The translations under genes were made by a program, and so were the position numbers. The notes under the pieces were generated by a model. The model ran no database searches, was not told the DNA's origin, and was given only the letters and a program-made list of their open reading frames with translations. Shown here piece by piece: positions 1 through 7,648 of a stretch of 7,648 nucleotides of DNA (the first letter of the stretch is position 1; each line of letters begins with the position of its first letter). Origin of the DNA: a virus (Duplodnaviria; Heunggongvirae; Uroviricota; Caudoviricetes); IMG/VR virus record IMGVR_UViG_2693429623_000007, one strand, 5' to 3'.

Positions 1-155
1 ACCTGGACAATATCCTGAAAGCACCACTGGATGCGCTGACGCATGCCGGACTACTCATAGACGACGAGCAGTTTGATGAAATCAATATTGTGCGCGGTCA
101 GCTCGTTCCTGGGGGGCGGCTGGGCGTGAAGATTTACAAAATTGAGAGTGAGTGA
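1..155 (+). CDS. rusA: Holliday junction resolvase RusA, 3' end (5' partial; starts upstream of window)
   Basis: Frame from nt 3 translates to LDNILKAPLDALTHAGLLIDDEQFDEINIVRGQLVPGGRLGVKIYKIESE*, stop TGA 153-155. Matches the C-terminal region of E. coli RusA as I recall it (DLDNL..DAL..AG...DD...GGRL); recall-based, not searched. Confidence 0.8.
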   Translation, partial: LDNILKAPLDALTHAGLLIDDEQFDEINIVRGQLVPGGRLGVKIYKIESE

Positions 156-706
156 TCGTAAATATGATATATCCGGAAATTACAGGCAAAAGCGGCGAGC
201 ATTTACGTCTAAAAACGCTGGAAGCCGTCTGGATCCAGGGGAAATTACGGATGTGGGGGCGTTGGTCGTATATAGGTGGTGGCAAACCAGGAAATATGTT
301 CAATCAGTTGCTGGCATCCAAAAAACTGACAAAAACCGCGGTCAATGAAGCCCTGCGTAGAATCAGGGAGTCAGGGATTGATAAACCAGAGCTGGAAGCA
401 TTCTTGCGAGAGATGATCGCTGGCAGACAGAAGAGCTGGTTGTCTCACTGTACTGATGCAGAGGCGTTACGCATTGATGGGGTGATAAGTAAAGCGCTTG
501 CACGTTATCCTGGATTGATTGATATCCTGCGGCAAAGGTACGAAGGGCGGGGGATGAGTAAACGCAAAATGGCTGAATTGTTGAATGAGGTGCACCCGGA
601 ATGGTGTTTTAGTACATGCGAAAAGCGAATTGCTAATTGGTTGGCTGTTGCTGAATATGCGCTATACATCCCTATGCGAGAATCGTTTGCTCAAAAAATG
701 TCTTGA
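152..706 (+). CDS. Putative late-gene antiterminator Q (non-lambda Q family), assigned mainly by synteny
   Basis: 184-aa ORF directly after rusA (GTG 152 overlaps the rusA stop as GTGA; alternative ATG at 164), followed by a promoter-like element and an intrinsic terminator. Contains a W-G-x-W stretch (LRMWGRWS) reminiscent of DLP12-type Q proteins. Family call is uncertain. Confidence 0.55.
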   Translation: MIVNMIYPEITGKSGEHLRLKTLEAVWIQGKLRMWGRWSYIGGGKPGNMFNQLLASKKLTKTAVNEALRRIRESGIDKPELEAFLREMIAGRQKSWLSHCTDAEALRIDGVISKALARYPGLIDILRQRYEGRGMSKRKMAELLNEVHPEWCFSTCEKRIANWLAVAEYALYIPMRESFAQKMS

Positions 707-731
707 TTTTTTACGCATAAACTGTTTCAAT
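703..731 (+). promoter_or_regulatory. Candidate late promoter (pR'-like) downstream of the Q-like gene
   Basis: TTGATT (703-708), 17-nt spacer, TTCAAT (726-731) preceded by TG at 723-724 (extended -10 like). Lies about 60 nt upstream of an intrinsic terminator, the arrangement expected for pR'/tR'. Confidence 0.4.
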
Positions 732-790
732 CCAGCTACGCTTCGCAAAGCTATACCGCGAGGCGAATAGCAGACATGGACACCTGAAAG

Positions 791-814
791 AACCCGCTTT
801 ATGCGGGTTTTTTT
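791..814 (+). terminator. Rho-independent terminator (tR'-like)
   Basis: Stem cccgc (793-797), loop tttat, stem gcggg (803-807), then seven T's (808-814). Confidence 0.7.
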
Positions 815-937
815 GTGCCCGAAAAGCGGTACAGGACGTTAAATGCGCTGGTGGTTGCGAATGCCGGTCTTTCAGCTTGCTGGCTTTTTCGACAAGAGGT
901 ATTGGTATGTCACGTTAACCGGAAAAGGGAAAAAGGC

Positions 938-1135
938 ATGCTAAAACAGCAGGATATGACCGAAACCGCCAGAGTGGTGTTTAATGAATTAAGCGTCACC
1001 GAACCGGCGACCGTCGGGGAAATTGCGCAGAATACTTACCTTTCACGCGAACGCTGCCAGTTAATCCTGACCCAGCTTGTTATGGCGGGTCTGGCAGATT
1101 ATCAGTTCGGTTGTTACAGACGCCTTCCGCAGTGA
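938..1135 (+). CDS. Small hypothetical protein (65 aa), possible helix-turn-helix DNA-binding protein; allele 1
   Basis: ATG 938 preceded by purine-rich aaaagggaaaaagg. The longer track ORF from 815 would start inside the terminator region, so the internal ATG is preferred. Product MLKQQDMTETARVVFNELSVTEPATVGEIAQNTYLSRERCQLILTQLVMAGLADYQFGCYRRLPQ; the stretch ATVGEIAQNTYLSRERCQLILTQL looks like an HTH. A near-identical allele is at 1826-2023. Confidence 0.6.
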   Translation: MLKQQDMTETARVVFNELSVTEPATVGEIAQNTYLSRERCQLILTQLVMAGLADYQFGCYRRLPQ

Positions 1136-1144
1136 AGGCTTTTT
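1122..1144 (+). terminator. Rho-independent terminator overlapping the stop codon of the 65-aa gene
   Basis: Stem gccttc (1122-1127), loop cgcagt, stem gaaggc (1134-1139), then five T's (1140-1144). The same structure recurs at about 2009-2033 and 2201-2223. Confidence 0.5.
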
Positions 1145-1184
1145 AATTTGTGGTAATGGGCGGCTGGTGGGTGTTAGCGGCNTC

Positions 1185-1601
1185 CAGTATCCGGATGGTA
1201 AGCCGCCGGTATGGGCAAAGTGTACGAAAGGTGTGTATCCGTCTTACTGGGAAGAATGGAAAAAAGTCAGGGAGGTGGTAAAAGTTGCCTGTCCGGAGTG
1301 TGGCGGAAAGGGTGAGGTTTCCACCGCCTGTAAGGATTGCCGTGGGCGTGGTGTCGCCATTCATCGTGAAGAGTCGGTAAAACGTGGTATGCCTGTTATC
1401 AGAGACTGCCAGCGTTGTGGTGGTCGTGGCTATGAAAGACTACCATCAACGGAGGCATTTAATGCTATATGCGAGGTGACAAACCAGATAACACGCGCGT
1501 CATGGGAAAAAACAGTTAAGAAATTTTATGATGCGCTGGTGACCCGGTTTGATATTGAAGAAGCATGGGCTGAGCGGCAGTTAAAAAAGGTAACTAGGTA
1601 A
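1185..1601 (+). CDS. Lambda-type antiterminator Q, C-terminal fragment (5' truncated at the junction n at 1182)
   Basis: Translation contains CPECGGKGEVSTACKDCRGRGVA...CQRCGGRGYERLPS...YDALV...KVTR*, matching the zinc-binding C-terminal region of lambda Q as recalled (CRDCHGTGRA...CGRCKGVGYSRMP...YDALV...AVTR). The first 35 codons of track ORF 1077-1601 lie in a repeat that is intergenic in the other copies, so the true N-terminus is missing. Confidence 0.75.
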   Translation, partial: QYPDGKPPVWAKCTKGVYPSYWEEWKKVREVVKVACPECGGKGEVSTACKDCRGRGVAIHREESVKRGMPVIRDCQRCGGRGYERLPSTEAFNAICEVTNQITRASWEKTVKKFYDALVTRFDIEEAWAERQLKKVTR

Positions 1602-1606
1602 CAAGG

Positions 1607-1634
1607 TTGATTTTTCCGGAATCTGTGGTAAATT
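1607..1634 (+). promoter_or_regulatory. Lambda-like late promoter pR'
   Basis: TTGATT (1607-1612), 16-nt spacer, TAAATT (1629-1634). The downstream text ggtaaattcgtcataacgatggg closely resembles the lambda pR' initial transcribed region (GGTAAATTTGACTCAACGATGGG, from memory). Confidence 0.65.
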
Positions 1635-1681
1635 CGTCATAACGATGGGCGTTTTATGCCTGACGTTAGAAGAGTTTCTAC

Positions 1682-1706
1682 AACCCGCCGCCGAGCGGGT
1701 TTTTTA
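1682..1706 (+). terminator. Rho-independent terminator tR' (lambda-like)
   Basis: Stem cccgc (1684-1688), loop cgccga, stem gcggg (1695-1699), then six T's (1700-1705); about 45 nt after the predicted pR' start. Confidence 0.7.
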
Positions 1707-1735
1707 TGACTGAAATCGCGTCAGTACAGTAAACG

Positions 1736-2112
1736 CGCTGGTGGCGGTGAATACCTGTCTTTCAGCTTGCTGGCTTTTTCGACAAGAGTTATTGGTGTGT
1801 CACGTTAACCGGAAAAGGAAAAGACATGCTAAAACAGCAGGATATGACAGAAACCGCCAGAGTGGTGTTTAATGAATTAAGCGTCACCGAACCGGCGACC
1901 GTCGGGGAAATTGCGCAGAATACTTACCTTTCACGCGAACGCTGCCAGTTAATACTGACCCAGCTGGTTATGGCGGGTCTGGCAGACTATCAGTTCGGTT
2001 GTTACAGACGCCTTCCGCAGTGAAGGCTTTTTTATTTGTGGTAAATGGGCGGCTGGTGGGTGTTAGGGGCACCCACCAGCCATCTGCTCATGCGTTGGGT
2101 TCACAAGCAAAC
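1736..2112 (+). repeat. Copy 2 of the duplicated unit containing the 65-aa gene
   Basis: Diverged allele of 848-1181; runs into the N gap at 2113. Confidence 0.8.
1826..2023 (+). CDS. Small hypothetical protein (65 aa), HTH-like; allele 2
   Basis: The track gives the same 65-aa protein as 938-1135; the DNA differs at scattered positions, implying synonymous changes. Same terminator at its stop. Confidence 0.6.
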   Translation: MLKQQDMTETARVVFNELSVTEPATVGEIAQNTYLSRERCQLILTQLVMAGLADYQFGCYRRLPQ

Positions 2113-2179
2113 NNNNNNNNNNNNNNNNNNNNNNNNNNNNNNNNNNNNNNNNNNNNNNNNNNNNNNNNNNNNNNNNNNN
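2113..2179. other. Assembly gap (67 N)
   Basis: Run of n; flanks are two copies of the same repeat unit. Confidence 1.
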
Positions 2180-2302
2180 ATCAGTTCGGTTGTTACAGAC
2201 GCCTTCCGCAGTGAAGGCTTTTTAATTTGTGGTAATGGGCGGCTGGTGGGTGTTAGCGGCACCTGCCAGCCATCTGCTCATGCGTTGGGGTCACAAGCAA
2301 AC
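2180..2302 (+). repeat. Copy 3 (partial) of the duplicated unit: last 11 codons of the 65-aa gene plus downstream
   Basis: atcagttcggttgttacagacgccttccgcagtgaaggc... matches 1102-1181 and 1989-2112. Confidence 0.8.
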
Positions 2303-2364
2303 CTCAGGCCCATCTGCTTTGCGCAAAAGCGGTATGAGCCTATCAGAGAAGTGCTTATTGATCT

Positions 2365-3070
2365 ATGGCCAATACTGTAAAAATATCCAGTTGTGAGTTA
2401 ATCAACGCTGATTGCCTGGAATTTATCCAGACCTTACCGGAAAATTCTGTCGATCTGATAGTCACAGACCCGCCATACTTTAAAGTGAAGCCCGAGGGCT
2501 GGGATAACCAGTGGGAGGGCGACGATGATTACCTGAAATGGCTGGACCAGTGTCTGGCGCAGTTCTGGCGGGTGCTGAAACCTGCCGGAAGTCTTTACCT
2601 GTTCTGTGGTCATCGCCTGGCATCTGATATCGAAATCATGATGCGTGAACGCTTCAGTGTGCTGAACCATATTATCTGGGCGAAGCCGTCCGGACGCTGG
2701 AACGGATGCAACAAGGAAAGCCTGCGGGCGTATTTCCCCGCCACAGAGCGCATTCTGTTCGCGGAACATTATCAGGGGCCGTATCGTCCGAAAGATGCCG
2801 GGTATGCGGCGAAGGGCAGTGCACTGAAACAGCATGTGATGGCCCCGCTGATTTCTTACTTTCGTGATGCGCGAGCTGCCCTGGGGATAACGGCAAAACA
2901 GATTGCAGATGCCACAGGAAAGAAAAACATGGTGTCGCACTGGTTCAGTGCCGGTCAGTGGCAGTTGCCGAATGAAAGCGATTATCTGAAATTACAGGCG
3001 CTGTTTGCCCGGGTGGCAGAAGAGAAGCATCGGCGTGGTGAACTGGAAAAGCTCCACCACCAGCTGGTGG
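2365..3070 (+). CDS. DNA N6-adenine methyltransferase, beta class, N-terminal 235 codons (3' end interrupted by N gap)
   Basis: MANTVKISSCELINADCLEFIQTLPENSVDLIVTDPPYF...; catalytic motif IV DPPY at 2467-2478. Track ORF 2365-3102 runs through the gap. The gene continues in the segment 3694-4037. Confidence 0.8.
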
Positions 3071-3081
3071 NNNNNNNNNNN
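3071..3081. other. Assembly gap (11 N)
   Basis: Run of n inside the methyltransferase reading frame. Confidence 1.
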
Positions 3082-3150
3082 TGGCACAGGGGCGCGAGCT
3101 AAAACAGCACGTCATGGCCCCGCTGATTTCTTACTTTCGTGATGCGCGTA
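3082..3150 (+). pseudogene. Isolated 69-bp internal fragment of a divergent methyltransferase allele, between two N runs
   Basis: Matches 2811-2878 with several substitutions in the first 30 bp; the segment ...catggccccgctgatttcttactttcgtgatgcgcg is shared. Confidence 0.6.
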
Positions 3151-3179
3151 NNNNNNNNNNNNNNNNNNNNNNNNNNNNN
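3151..3179. other. Assembly gap (29 N)
   Basis: Run of n. Confidence 1.
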
Positions 3180-4037
3180 GCGCAGTTCTGGCGGGTGCTG
3201 AAACCTGCCGGAAGTCTTTACCTGTTCTGTGGTCATCGCCTGGCATCTGATATCGAAATCATGATGCGTGAACGCTTCAGTGTGCTGAACCATATTATCT
3301 GGGCGAAGCCGTCCGGACGCTGGAACGGATGCAACAAGGAAAGCCTGCGGGCGTATTTCCCCGCCACAGAGCGCATTCTGTTCGCGGAACATTATCAGGG
3401 GCCGTATCGTCCGAAAGATGCCGGGTATGCGGCGAAGGGCAGTGCACTGAAACAGCATGTGATGGCCCCGCTGATTTCTTACTTTCGTGATGCGCGAGCT
3501 GCCCTGGGGATAACGGCAAAACAGATTGCAGATGCCACAGGAAAGAAAAACATGGTGTCGCACTGGTTCAGTGCCGGTCAGTGGCAGTTGCCGAATGAAA
3601 GCGATTATCTGAAATTACAGGCGCTGTTTGCCCGGGTGGCAGAAGAGAAGCATCGGCGTGGTGAACTGGAAAAGCTCCACCACCAGCTGGTGGATACGTA
3701 TACCTCACTGAACCGGCAGTATGCGGAGCTGCTGAGTGAATATAAACATCTGCGGCGGTATTTTGGCGTGACGGTGCAGGTGCCGTATACCGATGTGTGG
3801 ACGCATAAACCGGTGCAGTTCTATCCCGGGAAACATCCGTGCGAAAAACCGGCAGAAATGCTGCAGCAGATAATCAACGCGAGCAGTCGTCCGGGAGACC
3901 TGGTTGCAGATTTTTTTATGGGTTCAGGTTCAACGGTAAAAGCGGCGATGGCACTGGGGCGTTGTGCGATTGGTGTTGAGCTGGAGACCGGACGTTTTGA
4001 ACAGACAGTCAGGGAAGTTCAGGATTTAATCGTTTGA
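3180..4037 (+). CDS. DNA N6-adenine methyltransferase, beta class, codon approx. 65 to stop (5' truncated by N gap)
   Basis: 3180-3693 appears identical to 2557-3070 (514 bp). The C-terminal part carries the AdoMet-binding motif I, FFMGSGST. Motif IV before motif I is the beta-class order. Stop TGA 4035-4037. Reconstructed full gene is about 349 aa. Confidence 0.8.
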   Translation, partial: AQFWRVLKPAGSLYLFCGHRLASDIEIMMRERFSVLNHIIWAKPSGRWNGCNKESLRAYFPATERILFAEHYQGPYRPKDAGYAAKGSALKQHVMAPLISYFRDARAALGITAKQIADATGKKNMVSHWFSAGQWQLPNESDYLKLQALFARVAEEKHRRGELEKLHHQLVDTYTSLNRQYAELLSEYKHLRRYFGVTVQVPYTDVWTHKPVQFYPGKHPCEKPAEMLQQIINASSRPGDLVADFFMGSGSTVKAAMALGRCAIGVELETGRFEQTVREVQDLIV

Positions 4038-4098
4038 AACGGATGAGATTGCAGAATTAATTACGCACCATTATTATTCTGCTCCCGGCCCTTTAGCN

Positions 4099-4395
4099 CT
4101 GCGGCGGTATTTTGGCGTGACGGTGCAGGTGCCGTATACCGATGTGTGGACGCATAAACCGGTGCAGTTCTATCCCGGGAAACATCCGTGCGAAAAACCG
4201 GCAGAAATGCTGCAGCAGATAATCAGCGCTAGCAGTCGTCCGGGTGACCTGATTGCAGATTTTTTCATGGGGTTGGGTTCGACAGTGAAAGCGGCACTGG
4301 CGCTCGGGCGTCGTGCAATTGGCGTTGAGCTGGAGACTGAACGTTTTGAGCAGACGGTTCGGGAAGTACAGGATTTAGTCAGCCAGAACGGATGA
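4099..4395 (+). CDS. Methyltransferase C-terminal fragment, second allele (5' truncated at the junction n at 4098)
   Basis: In-frame from 4099. Product ...VTVQVPYTDVWTHKPVQFYPGKHPCEKPAEMLQQIISASSRPGDLIADFFMGLGSTVKAALALGRRAIGVELETERFEQTVREVQDLVSQNG* differs from the 3751-4037 allele by scattered substitutions and a 5-aa longer tail. Confidence 0.7.
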   Translation: MRRYFGVTVQVPYTDVWTHKPVQFYPGKHPCEKPAEMLQQIISASSRPGDLIADFFMGLGSTVKAALALGRRAIGVELETERFEQTVREVQDLVSQNG

Positions 4396-4435
4396 TATTG
4401 AAGAATTAATTACGCGTCGTTATTATGCGGCTCCC

Positions 4436-4511
4436 GGCCCTTTAGCTCAGTGGTGAGAGCGAGCGACTCATAATCGCCAGGTCGCTGGTTCAAATCCAGC
4501 AAGGGCCACCA
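4436..4511 (+). tRNA. tRNA-Ile2/Met, anticodon CAU (ileX/ileZ-like)
   Basis: Hand-folded cloverleaf: acceptor GGCCCTT/AAGGGCC, D arm GCTC-AGTGGTGA-GAGC, anticodon loop CTCATAA, T arm GCTGG-TTCAAAT-CCAGC, discriminator A, encoded CCA. Resembles E. coli ileX as recalled. Confidence 0.85.
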
Positions 4512-4518
4512 TCACATA

Positions 4519-4595
4519 CCGCCATTAACTCATCAGGATAGAGCGCCAGCCTTCGAAGCTGGTTGCGCGGGGTTCGAGTCCTCGATGGCGGTCCA
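4519..4595 (+). tRNA. tRNA-Arg, anticodon UCG
   Basis: Acceptor CCGCCAT/ATGGCGG (7 bp), anticodon stem CCAGC/GCTGG with loop CTTCGAA, T loop TTCGAGT, encoded CCA. The D stem has one A-C mismatch. Confidence 0.75.
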
Positions 4596-4608
4596 TTATC
4601 TGCATCAT

Positions 4609-4685
4609 GCGTTGTTAGCTCAGCCGGACAGAGCAATTGCCTTCTAAGCAATCGGTCACTGGTTCGAATCCAGTACAACGCGCCA
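4609..4685 (+). tRNA. tRNA-Arg, anticodon UCU
   Basis: Acceptor GCGTTGT/ACAACGC, D arm GCTC-AGCCGGACA-GAGC, anticodon stem ATTGC/GCAAT with loop CTTCTAA, T arm ACTGG-TTCGAAT-CCAGT, encoded CCA. Confidence 0.85.
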
Positions 4686-4698
4686 CGCTTATTTTTCC

Positions 4699-4723
4699 AG
4701 GCTCGCTTCGGCGGGCCTTTTTC
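4699..4723 (+). terminator. Rho-independent terminator after the tRNA cluster
   Basis: Stem aggctcgc (4699-4706), loop ttcg, stem gcgggcct (4711-4718, one G-U pair), then T-run to 4722. Confidence 0.55.
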
Positions 4724-4860
4724 ATATCCGCGCCACGCCCGGCGCACATCAAAAAACCACAGAGCCTTTCAGGGGTGAGCTTACGGGATGGTCAGTGTGA
4801 CTTTCTCTGTGGGCTGGTCACCCCCGGGCGCAGGCTCACCCACTAAAAGGAAAAGTCACG

Positions 4861-5286
4861 ATGTTTGGTATTTTCAAAAAGAAAACCCGCAAGGCCATTA
4901 CCGAGGTGAAGAAGATGGAGAACCGTGACGCAGTGGAGGCGACCGTCTGGGGCGCGTACTCCATTGCATACGCTGACGGCACCTGTGACGCGAAAGAAAT
5001 CGCGGTACTGGAAAAAACCATTGCAGCACTTCCTGTCTTTGCGCCGTTCTCCGGTGAGATTGCACAAATGAGTGCAAATATCCGCGCCCGTTATGAAGCG
5101 TCGCCGCGTTCTGCCAATGCCGAAGCTCTTCGTCAGCTGGCTGATGTTGCCGGTACTGATGATGCAGTTAATGTGCTGTGCCTGTGTCTGGATATCGCTG
5201 ACCAGGACGGTATCGCTCAGGAAGAAGAAGCGCAACTGAAGAAAATTGCGCAGGCGCTGCAGTTGCCGCTGGAGCAGTACCTGTGA
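4861..5286 (+). CDS. TerB-like (tellurite-resistance TerB family) domain protein, 141 aa
   Basis: ATG 4861 with aaaaggaaaag upstream. Two internal half-repeats of the form A-x-A-DG...E...L..IA.AL (AYADGTCDAKEIAVLEKTIAAL and DIADQDGIAQEEEAQLKKIAQAL), the arrangement I recall for TerB. Family call is from memory. Confidence 0.55.
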   Translation: MFGIFKKKTRKAITEVKKMENRDAVEATVWGAYSIAYADGTCDAKEIAVLEKTIAALPVFAPFSGEIAQMSANIRARYEASPRSANAEALRQLADVAGTDDAVNVLCLCLDIADQDGIAQEEEAQLKKIAQALQLPLEQYL

Positions 5287-5435
5287 AAAGTGCGCGCCTT
5301 GTGCTGGCTGTCATCCTGTTGTTTCTGGTAGTGGTGGTTGATTTCACCGGACGACTGATGTCGGTGCTGGCAGATGGTGTGCTGGTGGCGATGGCGCTGG
5401 TCGTGCTCCGGCCTTTACTGCGTAAATCTGAATAA
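5283..5435 (+). CDS. Small hydrophobic protein (50 aa), putative membrane peptide
   Basis: GTG 5283 overlaps the upstream stop as GTGA; ggag lies 10 nt upstream. Product VKSARLVLAVILLFLVVVVDFTGRLMSVLADGVLVAMALVVLRPLLRKSE*. Below the 60-aa cutoff of the ORF track. Speculative. Confidence 0.35.
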   Translation: MKSARLVLAVILLFLVVVVDFTGRLMSVLADGVLVAMALVVLRPLLRKSE

Positions 5436-5444
5436 CATCACACA

Positions 5445-5481
5445 AAAGGCATCTGCGGATGCCTTTGACGGGGTGTTTTTT
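5445..5481 (+). terminator. Perfect 9-bp hairpin followed by a T-run; putative terminator or attenuator before the lysis genes
   Basis: aaaggcatc (5445-5453), loop tgcg, gatgccttt (5458-5466), then gacggggtg and six T's (5476-5481). Confidence 0.4.
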
Positions 5482-5520
5482 ACGGGTCGCTGGTGGCCCT
5501 TTTTTATTTTCAGGAGGAAG

Positions 5521-5914
5521 TATGTCTGAACCCTTATCCGGTTCCGGCACGGCTGCGGCGCTGGGGGGCGCGACGGTATTCGGGCTGTTTACCGGGATGG
5601 ATTTCGGGATTGTGTTTGGCGCGTTCGCCGGGGCGTTATTTGTGGCAACGATGCCGCAGTCACTTTCAGTCTGGCGCGTGGTGGCGCATTTTCTGGTGTC
5701 GTTTATTGTCGGCGTGCTGGGAGCGCGTGTGCTGTCAGCCTGGATTGCATCAAAAACAGGGTATGACGGTACATCAGCAGATGCGCTTTGCGCGGTGCTG
5801 GTCTCGGTGGTGTCGGTGAAGATTCTCTCGTTCATCCACCAGCAGGATATTGCATCGCTGGTGTCCGGTGTGTTCTCCCGCCTGCGGGGTGGAGGAGGCG
5901 GCAATGTTAAGTAA
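5521..5914 (+). CDS. Putative holin-like membrane protein (131 aa)
   Basis: ATG 5521 with strong SD caggaggaag. The track start at 5459 falls inside the upstream hairpin and is rejected. Gly/Ala-rich hydrophobic segments suggest about 3 TM helices by eye. It is the first gene of a cluster ending in an M15 endolysin. Atypical for a holin: the C-terminus is GGGGGNVK rather than strongly charged. Confidence 0.5.
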
Positions 5915-6179
5915 CCTTCCCGGATTGCTGAATGTGGCGTTATGCACGGTTATCGTGCTGACGCTCTTTTTTTATCGTCGCCGTGATTCCAGACATAAAC
6001 CGCTGGTGTCATGGCTGGCCTGGCTGCTGATGCTGCTGTATGCCTTTGCGCCCCTCAGCTATCTGTGTGGTCGCCCGTTAGCAACGGGCTGGCTGGAAGT
6101 GTTTTTTAACCTGCTGTTCTGCGTGCTGGTGATACGCGCACGCGGGAACGTCACAAAAATCTTTCCATTGTTGAGGTGA
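5904..6179 (+). CDS. Lysis-associated membrane protein (92 aa; second holin or antiholin candidate)
   Basis: ATG 5904 preceded by ggaggagg; overlaps the upstream stop by 11 nt. Product MLSNLPGLLNVALCTVIVLTLFFYRRRDSRHKPLVSWLAWLLMLLYAFAPLSYLCGRPLATGWLEVFFNLLFCVLVIRARGNVTKIFPLLR*, about 3 hydrophobic segments by eye. Stop TGA 6177-6179. Confidence 0.5.
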   Translation: MLSNLPGLLNVALCTVIVLTLFFYRRRDSRHKPLVSWLAWLLMLLYAFAPLSYLCGRPLATGWLEVFFNLLFCVLVIRARGNVTKIFPLLR

Positions 6180-6181
6180 AT

Positions 6182-6559
6182 ATGCCGGGTAAATTCAGAT
6201 TCAGCCGTCGCAGTGAAAAAAATCTGGAGGGTGTCAAACCACAGCTGGTTGCTGTAGTTCGCCGTGCGCTGGAGCTGACGGAGGTTGATTTCGGTATTAC
6301 GGAAGGCCTGCGCAGTAAGTATCGCCAGAAACAGCTGGTTGCGGAAGGGAAAAGCCAGACCATGAACAGCCGCCACCTGACCGGTGATGCGGTGGATGTT
6401 GTGGCCTACATTGGCAGTCAGGTGTCATGGGAGTGGCCTCTGTACGAGAAAATCGCACAGGCATTTAAGCAGGCTGCCGCAGAGCTGGGGATCGCTATCG
6501 AATGGGGCGGGGACTGGAAAACGCTGAAAGACGGACCTCACTTTCAGCTGAAGCGATAA
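6182..6559 (+). CDS. Endolysin, peptidase M15 family (L-alanyl-D-glutamate peptidase / VanY-like)
   Basis: ATG 6182 after gaggtg (the track uses GTG 6176). Putative zinc ligands in SRHLTGDAVD (H-x6-D) and DGPHFQL, as in T5-type endolysins (recalled). Directly follows two membrane-protein genes. Confidence 0.8.
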   Translation: MPGKFRFSRRSEKNLEGVKPQLVAVVRRALELTEVDFGITEGLRSKYRQKQLVAEGKSQTMNSRHLTGDAVDVVAYIGSQVSWEWPLYEKIAQAFKQAAAELGIAIEWGGDWKTLKDGPHFQLKR

Positions 6560-6566
6560 GTAAAAC

Positions 6567-6599
6567 AAAACCCCGGCTGGGGGAACAGTCCGGGGTTTT
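6567..6599 (+). terminator. Rho-independent terminator after the endolysin (3' side abuts N gap)
   Basis: aaaaccccgg ... ccggggtttt, a GC-rich stem with a 13-nt loop and four T's before the N run. Confidence 0.5.
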
Positions 6600-6823
6600 N
6601 NNNNNNNNNNNNNNNNNNNNNNNNNNNNNNNNNNNNNNNNNNNNNNNNNNNNNNNNNNNNNNNNNNNNNNNNNNNNNNNNNNNNNNNNNNNNNNNNNNNN
6701 NNNNNNNNNNNNNNNNNNNNNNNNNNNNNNNNNNNNNNNNNNNNNNNNNNNNNNNNNNNNNNNNNNNNNNNNNNNNNNNNNNNNNNNNNNNNNNNNNNNN
6801 NNNNNNNNNNNNNNNNNNNNNNN
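6600..6823. other. Assembly gap (224 N)
   Basis: Run of n between the endolysin terminator and the lipoprotein gene. Confidence 1.
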
Positions 6824-6857
6824 GCTGTTCTGATTTGGGCTGTGCGTTGGTGGTGAT

Positions 6858-7040
6858 ATGGCGCGAAAACACTGGACACACAGAATGCCGCGAACGGCGG
6901 TGAAACGGGCACTGGTAGCGATACTGGTGCCTTTTTTATTGGTGGGGTGCGTCAGCCTGGATAAGGCGCGCCAGCTTTTCGATACCGCGTCTCAGGTCTG
7001 TGAAATTGTCGACGGTGTTCGGCAGTGTCTGCAGAACTGA
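6858..7040 (+). CDS. Small lipoprotein (60-aa precursor); possible o-spanin (Rz1-like) or other outer-membrane lipoprotein
   Basis: ATG 6858 after ggtggtga. Basic N-region MARKHWTHRMPRTAVKR, hydrophobic core ALVAILVPFLL, lipobox LVGC. Mature part of about 37 aa with two further Cys. Not proline-rich as lambda Rz1 is, so the spanin assignment is weak. Confidence 0.45.
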   Translation: MARKHWTHRMPRTAVKRALVAILVPFLLVGCVSLDKARQLFDTASQVCEIVDGVRQCLQN

Positions 7041-7214
7041 TCGCCTGTAAGAGCAGAATATTTTGCTGAAAAATGAAGGATGCGCCAGCGTCCGGTAAGC
7101 ATGAAATTCTGTGTTTGTGGCTACTCAATAAAATAAATTCTTTCTGTCGCCGCGAATACTCAAATGTTGATCAGTGCCCGGTGCGGCGACGGGCTTCGAT
7201 ATCAGGAGACGATG

Positions 7215-7608
7215 ATGGAAAAAAACAGAAAACAAACCGATTGTAATTGGTGCTGATGCTGCTCCGTTTAAGTTTGAGTTGTCTCAACTGGTGGAGATGC
7301 GTATCAGTGATGAATGGGGTGAGGTTAAAGCCCGCGCGCAGTATGCGGATGGCGAAAACCAGTACTTGATCCACTACAAAGCAGCTGATGGTCGCGCCAC
7401 GACGGAGTGGTTTGGTGAGTCAATGCTGGAAGCAACAGAAGATGATCGTCATCCGGGTTGTCCGGTATTTGCCGGTATGAAATTACCGGAAGGTGCAGTT
7501 GAACTGCAGCCGGGTGAGGTGTTCGTAATGACAGACATCATTGATGGTAAACCGCAGTATTCGCGTATTGAAATGAATAGTAAGAGTGCTCGCCTGATTC
7601 GTGAGTAA
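7215..7608 (+). CDS. Hypothetical protein, apparently frameshifted at an A7 tract (7219-7225); uninterrupted frame runs 7279/7297-7608
   Basis: ATGATG at 7212-7217 with SD aggag at 7204-7208 opens a frame that stops after 14 codons. The long frame (W K K T E N K P I V I G ... ARLIRE*, stop 7606-7608) has no ATG until 7297 and no SD for the TTG at 7279 or the ATG at 7297. Removing one A from the tract fuses the SD-preceded start to the long frame, giving about 131 aa. Confidence 0.5.
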
Positions 7609-7648
7609 CAGGCATTACAGCAGCCCTTCACTCTAAGGGGTTGCTGTA

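Follow-up and report, generated by a model that had tools for sequence, protein, structure and literature searches.

M.EcoGII, the nearest characterised relative of the genes discussed here, is a beta-class adenine methyltransferase of 349 amino acids (aa) that is encoded by a prophage of Escherichia coli O104:H4 C227-11 and belongs to a very large E. coli prophage family (PMC5778455). It methylates adenine in any sequence context, has a paralogue in the same strain, M.EcoGI, that is identical at 333 of 349 residues, and has a close homologue in phage 1720a-02 (PMC5778455). M.EcoGII is silent in the lysogen and deleterious if expressed (PMC5778455, PMC12707154). Reconstructed ancestors are still non-site-specific at only ~70-83% identity to M.EcoGII, and AlphaFold models of the enzyme have been published in the same work (PMC11551740). 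Homologues with 92-94% similarity were called 'nonspecific' by REBASE-based annotation in a methylome study of O111 Shiga-toxin-producing E. coli (PMC6602927, Table 3). The family is thus not new; it has long been cloned, characterised and commercialised, and we find a member in 2,003 of 5,426 complete E. coli genomes (~37%). Here we analyse the methyltransferase region at positions 2365-4395 of a stretch of 7,648 bases from the IMG/VR record IMGVR_UViG_2693429623_000007, referred to as the window. This region had been the subject of an earlier note, which read it as one orphan N6-adenine methyltransferase gene present in at least two alleles. We conclude with high confidence that it consists of parts of two paralogous methyltransferases of the M.EcoGI/M.EcoGII family, one from each of two lambdoid prophages of one E. 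coli genome or sample resembling enterotoxigenic E. coli (ETEC), which were interleaved in the assembly.

The window is interrupted by six runs of N (1182, 2113-2179, 3071-3081, 3151-3179, 4098 and 6600-6823) and also contains several long direct repeats. The N runs split the methyltransferase region into piece A (2180-3070), piece B (3082-3150), piece C (3180-4097) and piece D (4099 onward). Pieces A and C overlap, with 2557-3070 identical to 3180-3693 at 514 of 514 nucleotides (nt), and the last 349 bases of piece C are repeated in piece D at 89% identity. Base-by-base mapping resolves pieces A to D with zero mismatches into two natural genes, X and Y (Table 1). Allele X encodes 349 aa, reads FFMGSGST in motif I, ends in DLIV and is the same as the allele in a prophage of E. 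coli AST85 (locus L005). Allele Y encodes 352 aa, reads FFMGLGST, ends in VSQNG and is found intact and free of N in ten IMG/VR contigs, with L006 as the reference locus. Both C-terminal forms are natural: among the viral loci sampled, DLIV with 349 aa occurs in 65 and VSQNG with 352 aa in 34 intact genes.

The points at which the window changes from one gene to the other can be placed closely. The segment 2365-2538 has no mismatch to the AST85-type locus and 16 to the Y-type locus (between 2368 and 2538), while in the tail of piece C the last mismatch to L005 lies at 3827 and 32 mismatches to L006 follow from 3877 on. All path switches fall in stretches that X and Y share, namely 2539-2573 (35 nt), 3828-3876 (49 nt) and 4436-4527. 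Fragment B, from the centre of X, also has 100% matches in methyltransferase genes of other complete genomes. Piece D differs from genes of the WP_000024311.1 type by one mismatch in 282 nt, which is the TCG>TTG codon of motif I. The region 2365-4395 is therefore neither a single gene nor a tandem pair, but consists of pieces of two real genes.

Table 1. Features of the window, in order of position.
Feature	Position	Strand	Evidence and remarks
Q-like antiterminator, prophage X	152-706	+	DUF1133, E=5.6e-103; weak Phage_antitermQ
Terminator-like hairpin AACCCGC-TTTAT-GCGGGTT + T7	788-815		~85 nt past the stop of the DUF1133 Q; read by eye, not in the automatic scan
65-aa open reading frame, prophage X	938-1135	+	hypothetical protein WP_000917767.1 at the matching L005 site
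Terminator-like hairpin + T-run	1122-1139		stop codon of the prophage X 65-aa frame in the loop
Prophage Y piece: 3' part of a different Q, 65-aa frame, intergenic region	1183-2112	+	Pfam
65-aa open reading frame, prophage Y	1826-2023	+	
Intrinsic-terminator-like hairpin GCCTTCCGCAGTGAAGGC + T5	2201-2223	+	~145 nt 5' of the methyltransferase start; stop of the 65-aa frame in the loop
Near-perfect long hairpin GGGCGGCUGGUGGGUGUUAGCGGCACCUGCCAGCC...	~2235-2281		in the leader, 3' of the terminator-like site and 5' of the methyltransferase start
Head of allele X	2365-2573	+	start codon 2365; DPPY 2467-2478 (aa 35-38)
Centre of allele Y (end of core, linker, target-recognition domain), into the 11-N gap	2539-3070	+	zero mismatches to L006
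Fragment B, centre of allele X, 69 nt, AQGRELKQHVMAPLISYFRDAR	3082-3150	+	100% to L005 5344-5412
Centre of allele Y, second time	3180-3876	+	zero mismatches to the intact L006 gene
Tail of allele X and spacer into the first tRNA-Ile bases	3828-4097	+	FxGxG 3915-3929; stop 4035-4037
Tail of allele Y, from LRRYFGV	4099-4395	+	100% to L006; stop 4393-4395
tRNA cluster, ileZ-argN-argO type	4436-4685	+	tRNA scan; directly after the methyltransferase
tRNA(CAT)	4436-4511	+	ARAGORN: Met; RefSeq relatives: tRNA-Ile; Stx2 phage record: ileZ
tRNA-Arg(TCG)	4519-4595	+	
tRNA-Arg(TCT)	4609-4685	+	
Late/lysis genes of prophage X: TerB-family protein, two holins, M15 endolysin	4861-6559	+	Pfam; 99.8% to AST85

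Two reconstructions were discarded. The 349-aa gene that can be stitched from pieces A and C (2365-3070 + 3694-4037) is a chimera with the head of X, the centre of Y and the tail of X. Phasing on complete E. coli genomes, where the centre reaches at best 98.2% with the tail of piece C and 96.3% with that of piece D, was misleading because the exact Y allele is absent from that collection; the IMG/VR contigs decided the matter.

The same mapping can be extended to the flanks, which match the AST85 prophage: window 1-1181 is 99.8% identical to L005 3617-4797, 4436-6599 is 99.8% and 6824-7648 is 100% identical to the same prophage. The stretch 1183-2112 is instead 99.5-99.6% identical to the region 5' of the Y-type gene in two viral contigs (L010 and L012), and after piece D the path reverts to the AST85 type within or just past the shared tRNA-Ile (4436-4527). 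Since the piecewise mapping switches types only at shared stretches, the whole window reads as an interleaving, produced by scaffolded short-read assembly, of late regions from two lambdoid prophages. As reconstructed, prophage X is AST85-like and carries a DUF1133-type Q, the 349-aa methyltransferase and a TerB/holin/M15 lysis module, and prophage Y carries an Antiterm-type Q and the 352-aa methyltransferase with Leu in FxGxG. The nearest relatives of the AST85 prophage include known ETEC strains, for example B7A and TW10590. The two supposed alleles are thus paralogues. Multiple methyltransferase copies at distant loci, in up to 6 places, are found in single E. coli genomes, and more than 1 Mb separates the two types in NZ_CP066032.1 (H8 and H44). 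Stretches of the window without any N also switch prophage at 35-90 nt of shared sequence, and for this reason any open reading frame of the window is possibly chimeric.

The arrangement could alternatively be genuine, with part of a gene duplicated in tandem, or gene fragments left by decay, at a single prophage locus. Prophage late regions do recombine, and one further contig (L014, IMGVR_UViG_2681813267_000008) has two identical Leu-variant 352-aa genes at 3758-4819 and 6129-7190, 2.4 kb apart. However, that contig has single-N positions beside its copies, at 2769 and 6012, and its double copy is probably the same type of scaffold tangle. In the window, each junction coincides with a run of N, the overlap between the pieces is free of any difference, and the junction of pieces C and D couples the first tRNA bases to mid-gene sequence. 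A 501-nt query across this junction maps to a span of only 348 nt in every listed E. coli match, and the tandem layout is absent in complete E. coli genomes among the matches listed of 1,848 matching records. Together with the mismatch-free assignment to two intact natural genes, this leaves a genuine tandem arrangement extremely improbable.

The class of the enzyme is clear. Pfam model PF01555 (N6_N4_Mtase) matches the A+C chimera with 147.6 bits and E=6.7e-43 at a cut-off of 26.7, spanning residues 29-340 and profile positions 1-219 of 221. Motif IV, DPPY, at aa 35-38 precedes motif I, FMGSG or FMGLG, at aa 310-314, which is the beta-class order. Dam-type membership (alpha-class, GATC) disagrees with this, as the motif order is opposite and no Dam-family model is among the Pfam and NCBIfam matches. 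The CcrM equivalog model NF050803 reaches 72.3 bits where its cut-off is 830, and the NCBIfam scan as a whole gave nothing above any curated cut-off, so that the protein has no equivalog name. The PADLOC match is to the generic model 'MTase_II', which says nothing on a partner. By contrast, the sequence agrees with M.EcoGI/M.EcoGII on every feature that can be read from it, including full-length identity through the central domain, location in a lambdoid prophage and absence of an endonuclease. At least 318 of 348 aligned residues (91%) of X, 324 of 348 (92%) of Y and 324 of 350 of the A+C chimera are identical to M.EcoGII; these are lower bounds because the M.EcoGII sequence was machine-read from the PDF of Table S1 of PMC11551740 and contains reading errors ('NHHIW', 'GRRRAIG' and 'TKVPQYY'). 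The chimera is 93.4% identical to the gene of phage 1720a-02. By analogy to M.EcoGII, X and Y would be expected to methylate adenine without sequence specificity.

An orphan enzyme with a target motif of its own, serving epigenetic regulation or protection from one restriction system, would be the more conventional expectation. Site specificity is the rule among PF01555 enzymes, the name 'site-specific DNA-methyltransferase' is given to some RefSeq relatives, and of the 38 residues (of 349 aligned) that separate X from Y, 13 fall in the target-recognition domain. The RefSeq label, however, is an automatic family name, and the enzyme to which both alleles show at least 91-92% full-length identity is non-specific by experiment (PMC5778455), with relatives at ~70% identity that are still non-site-specific (PMC11551740). 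In addition, native strains with M.EcoGI or M.EcoGII homologues showed no extra methylation motif (PMC6602927). We therefore consider sequence-specific methylation quite improbable. The earlier note had advised a search for the closest characterised enzyme and its target motif and had treated the lack of a new methylation motif in expressing strains as refuting. The closest enzyme, M.EcoGII, has no such motif, and with silence expected in the lysogen and context-free N6-methyladenine expected on expression, that refutation would wrongly reject a correct assignment.

In motif I, the change from Ser to Leu is a genuine circulating minority variant. The Leu codon TTG of FFMGLGST lies at 4273-4275 and arises from a single C>T (TCG>TTG) relative to an otherwise identical tail of the WP_000024311.1 type. 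A read error is ruled out, as the exact 32-mer over the Leu codon recurs in ten independent IMG/VR contigs, where it lies within intact 352-aa genes. Conceivably, one copy or both no longer function and are relics of cryptic prophages; in particular, Y could be inactivated by Ser313Leu. None of the 80 closest relatives of X has Leu, which is a minority form even where the nucleotide background is the same, with 11 Leu genes against 33 Ser contigs; M.EcoGII is moreover toxic, so that loss-of-function variants could be tolerated or favoured in lysogens (PMC5778455). The Leu allele is nevertheless an intact 352-aa reading frame whose protein is identical in all six translated copies, taken from five of the ten N-free contigs, a pattern more in keeping with maintenance than with decay. 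The altered residue is also one of the two variable 'x' positions in FxGxG, and allele X has canonical motifs. Loss of function in one or both copies therefore seems unlikely, although it deserves more weight than the other alternatives considered here.

The neighbourhood is that of a prophage late region. Each of the six annotated contexts that we inspected has, on one strand, Q, a 65-aa open reading frame, the methyltransferase and tRNA-Ile/Arg/Arg in this order, followed by late and lysis genes; in L010 the same order from Q to the tRNAs emerges from open reading frames, tRNA scan and Pfam. In phage Stx2a_1447 the module of 65-aa frame, methyltransferase and tRNAs lies immediately 5' of stx2AB. 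No endonuclease was found by Pfam among the open reading frames of the window, nor adjoining the methyltransferase in seven related contexts, which include X, Y and the Stx2 phage. A type II restriction-modification system would have an adjacent cognate endonuclease; here the flanks are the 65-aa frame and Q on one side and the tRNAs on the other. One related prophage (L002 in NZ_CP045827.1) has an NgoMIV-family endonuclease with its own cytosine methyltransferase and a QueH gene at 1181-3191, ~3 kb 5' of an M.EcoGII-type gene. Since the endonuclease already has that methyltransferase as its partner, it is not counted as cognate to the M.EcoGII-type gene, and the prophage unites a true restriction-modification system with a non-specific methylase.

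With these results, the beta-class order, the orphan status, the tRNAs directly following and the placement in the late operon that the earlier note had read from the letters all stand, the last as the Q-to-lysis region of a lambdoid prophage. Its two alleles are both present, as paralogues of two prophages and not as versions of one locus, and the differences it saw in motif I and in C-terminal length are both real but form part of substitutions that run throughout the proteins. What does not hold is the region as one gene, since it is made of four N-separated pieces of which A and C are themselves chimeric. The observation is thus confirmed in part, and the interpretation placed on it is supported in part.

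The tRNA(CAT) is of the lysidine-modified ileZ type, and its label should read Ile; the Rfam gathering scan gave nothing but the three tRNAs. The lysis set of prophage X comprises a Phage_holin_8 protein, a 3TM holin, an M15 metallopeptidase endolysin and a small DUF3927 frame that is annotated in AST85, while most relatives carry a nanS-p esterase, a class II holin and a lysozyme in place of the TerB/holin/M15 set. The Q protein of prophage Y, from 1183 to 1601, combines Antiterm (PF03589) with a DnaJ-type zinc finger. Thus two unrelated types of Q precede near-identical methyltransferase modules, from which it follows that the module of 65-aa frame, methyltransferase and tRNAs moves between late-control systems. 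The 65-aa frame always lies between Q and the methyltransferase, is annotated as hypothetical throughout, and has a weak match to a TrmB-like winged helix (E=0.0026), which is below threshold. A truncated copy of it is present at 2180-2214.

Q and the methyltransferase are separated by two terminator-like hairpins, one ~85 nt past the Q stop and one over the stop codon of the 65-aa frame, with a long hairpin after them (Table 1). The placement of the hairpin at 788-815 recalls a short late leader transcript. The 191-nt leader 2180-2370 folds at -73.3 kcal/mol with z = -2.6, and none of 200 shuffled sequences folds as well. In the sigma-70 consensus scan of 600-4900, which contains fewer sigma-70-like sites than shuffled sequence does, the sole site is a weak one at 4398-4426 (TTGAAG, 17 nt spacer, TATTAT). 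It lies between the stop of the Y methyltransferase and tRNA-Ile and could be a tRNA promoter.

Identity, architecture, gene context, origin from two copies and absence of an endonuclease are established here. For the function of the enzyme, the reading already put forward for M.EcoGII has the best support (PMC5778455; PMC12707154). Like M.EcoGII, it would use S-adenosylmethionine (AdoMet) to methylate adenine N6 in any context, on double- and single-stranded DNA and more weakly on RNA. With its place on the same strand between Q and the tRNA and lysis genes, and with terminator-like hairpins ahead of it, the gene is probably not transcribed until Q permits read-through from the late promoter after induction. 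Replicating phage DNA would then be hypermethylated before packaging, leaving progeny resistant to many adenine-sensitive restriction systems. The gene would remain silent in the lysogen, where its expression would harm; for X and Y this is suggested, in analogy to M.EcoGII, by their position behind the terminator-like hairpins 3' of Q.

Several points weigh against this explanation. The pieces may stem from a mixed sample instead of one genome with two prophages. Ser occupies the FxGxG position in 113 of 124 sampled relatives, 11 of the 124 having been chosen by searching for the Leu codon, and Leu in the AdoMet-binding motif could weaken or abolish the activity of Y. Roughly 25-30 substitutions separate X and Y from M.EcoGII, several of them in the target-recognition domain, and these comparisons were made to the machine-read copy; context-free activity is ascribed to the two alleles by homology to M.EcoGII. 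No late promoter was found between Q and the methyltransferase in the sigma-70 scan, so that position and terminators are what speaks for Q-dependent expression. In the literature on the M.EcoGI/M.EcoGII family, we found no documented expression at the time of induction, methylation of packaged DNA or dependence on Q, nor did we find the anti-restriction benefit demonstrated.

It has also to be considered that the physiological substrates include RNA besides phage DNA, for example the three downstream tRNAs or late transcripts. This is raised by the methylation of RNA by M.EcoGII in vitro and by the linkage of methyltransferase and tRNAs, which is invariant in the contexts examined, and we regard it as a long shot. 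If it were true, the Ser313Leu lineage might represent a retuned and not a broken enzyme.

Beyond this locus, two prophage-borne paralogues interleaved in assembly have consequences for how such records are read. Scaffolded draft windows can show paralogues of different prophages as "alleles" or as tandem genes, and contiguous stretches free of N can also be chimeras of two copies. For the M.EcoGI/M.EcoGII family, a target motif or a new motif in the lysogen methylome is the wrong test. A broad anti-restriction role through context-free methylation in lytic growth, including that of Stx2 phages, is still only assumed in the literature consulted.

Among known systems, CcrM, M.RsrI, M.MboIIA and the 9c3u/8urk methyltransferase are beta-class enzymes of solved structure. 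The Rossmann core and the two motifs are common to them and the protein of the window (PDB, E = 4e-25 to 3e-15), but only core segments align in the PDB sequence search, at residues ~8-114 and 281-340, and the central domain is left without counterpart; of the M.EcoGI/M.EcoGII family itself there is no solved structure. In their site specificity these enzymes are unlike M.EcoGII. Hia5-type enzymes (alpha class; Drozdz et al., via PMC5778455) are likewise phage-associated, near-context-free adenine methylases that are thought to be broad anti-restriction devices. In these, FxGxG comes before DPPY, and they form a lineage unrelated to the protein of the window with its beta order. The A+C chimera is 87-95% identical to the 'DNA methylase' of Stx2-converting phages (e.g. 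BAT32403.1 in Stx2a_1447), of phiP27 and of phage 1720a-02. The Stx2 phages carry the same module of 65-aa frame, methylase and ileZ-argN-argO 3' of Q; there, stx2AB follow the tRNAs, whereas prophage X has TerB, holin and M15 lysis genes instead. The closest likeness is to M.EcoGII itself (EGT69837.1) and to M.EcoGI, beta-class proteins with DPPY at residue 35, a C-terminal FFMGSGST and a central four-helix target-recognition domain, which are prophage-borne, have no cognate endonuclease and, as in the pair described here, occur as two paralogues in one strain. Allele Y has its N-terminus (MLNTVK...IRSLPEN) in common with M.EcoGII and differs from it in being 3 residues longer (...VSQNG) and in having Leu for Ser in FxGxG.

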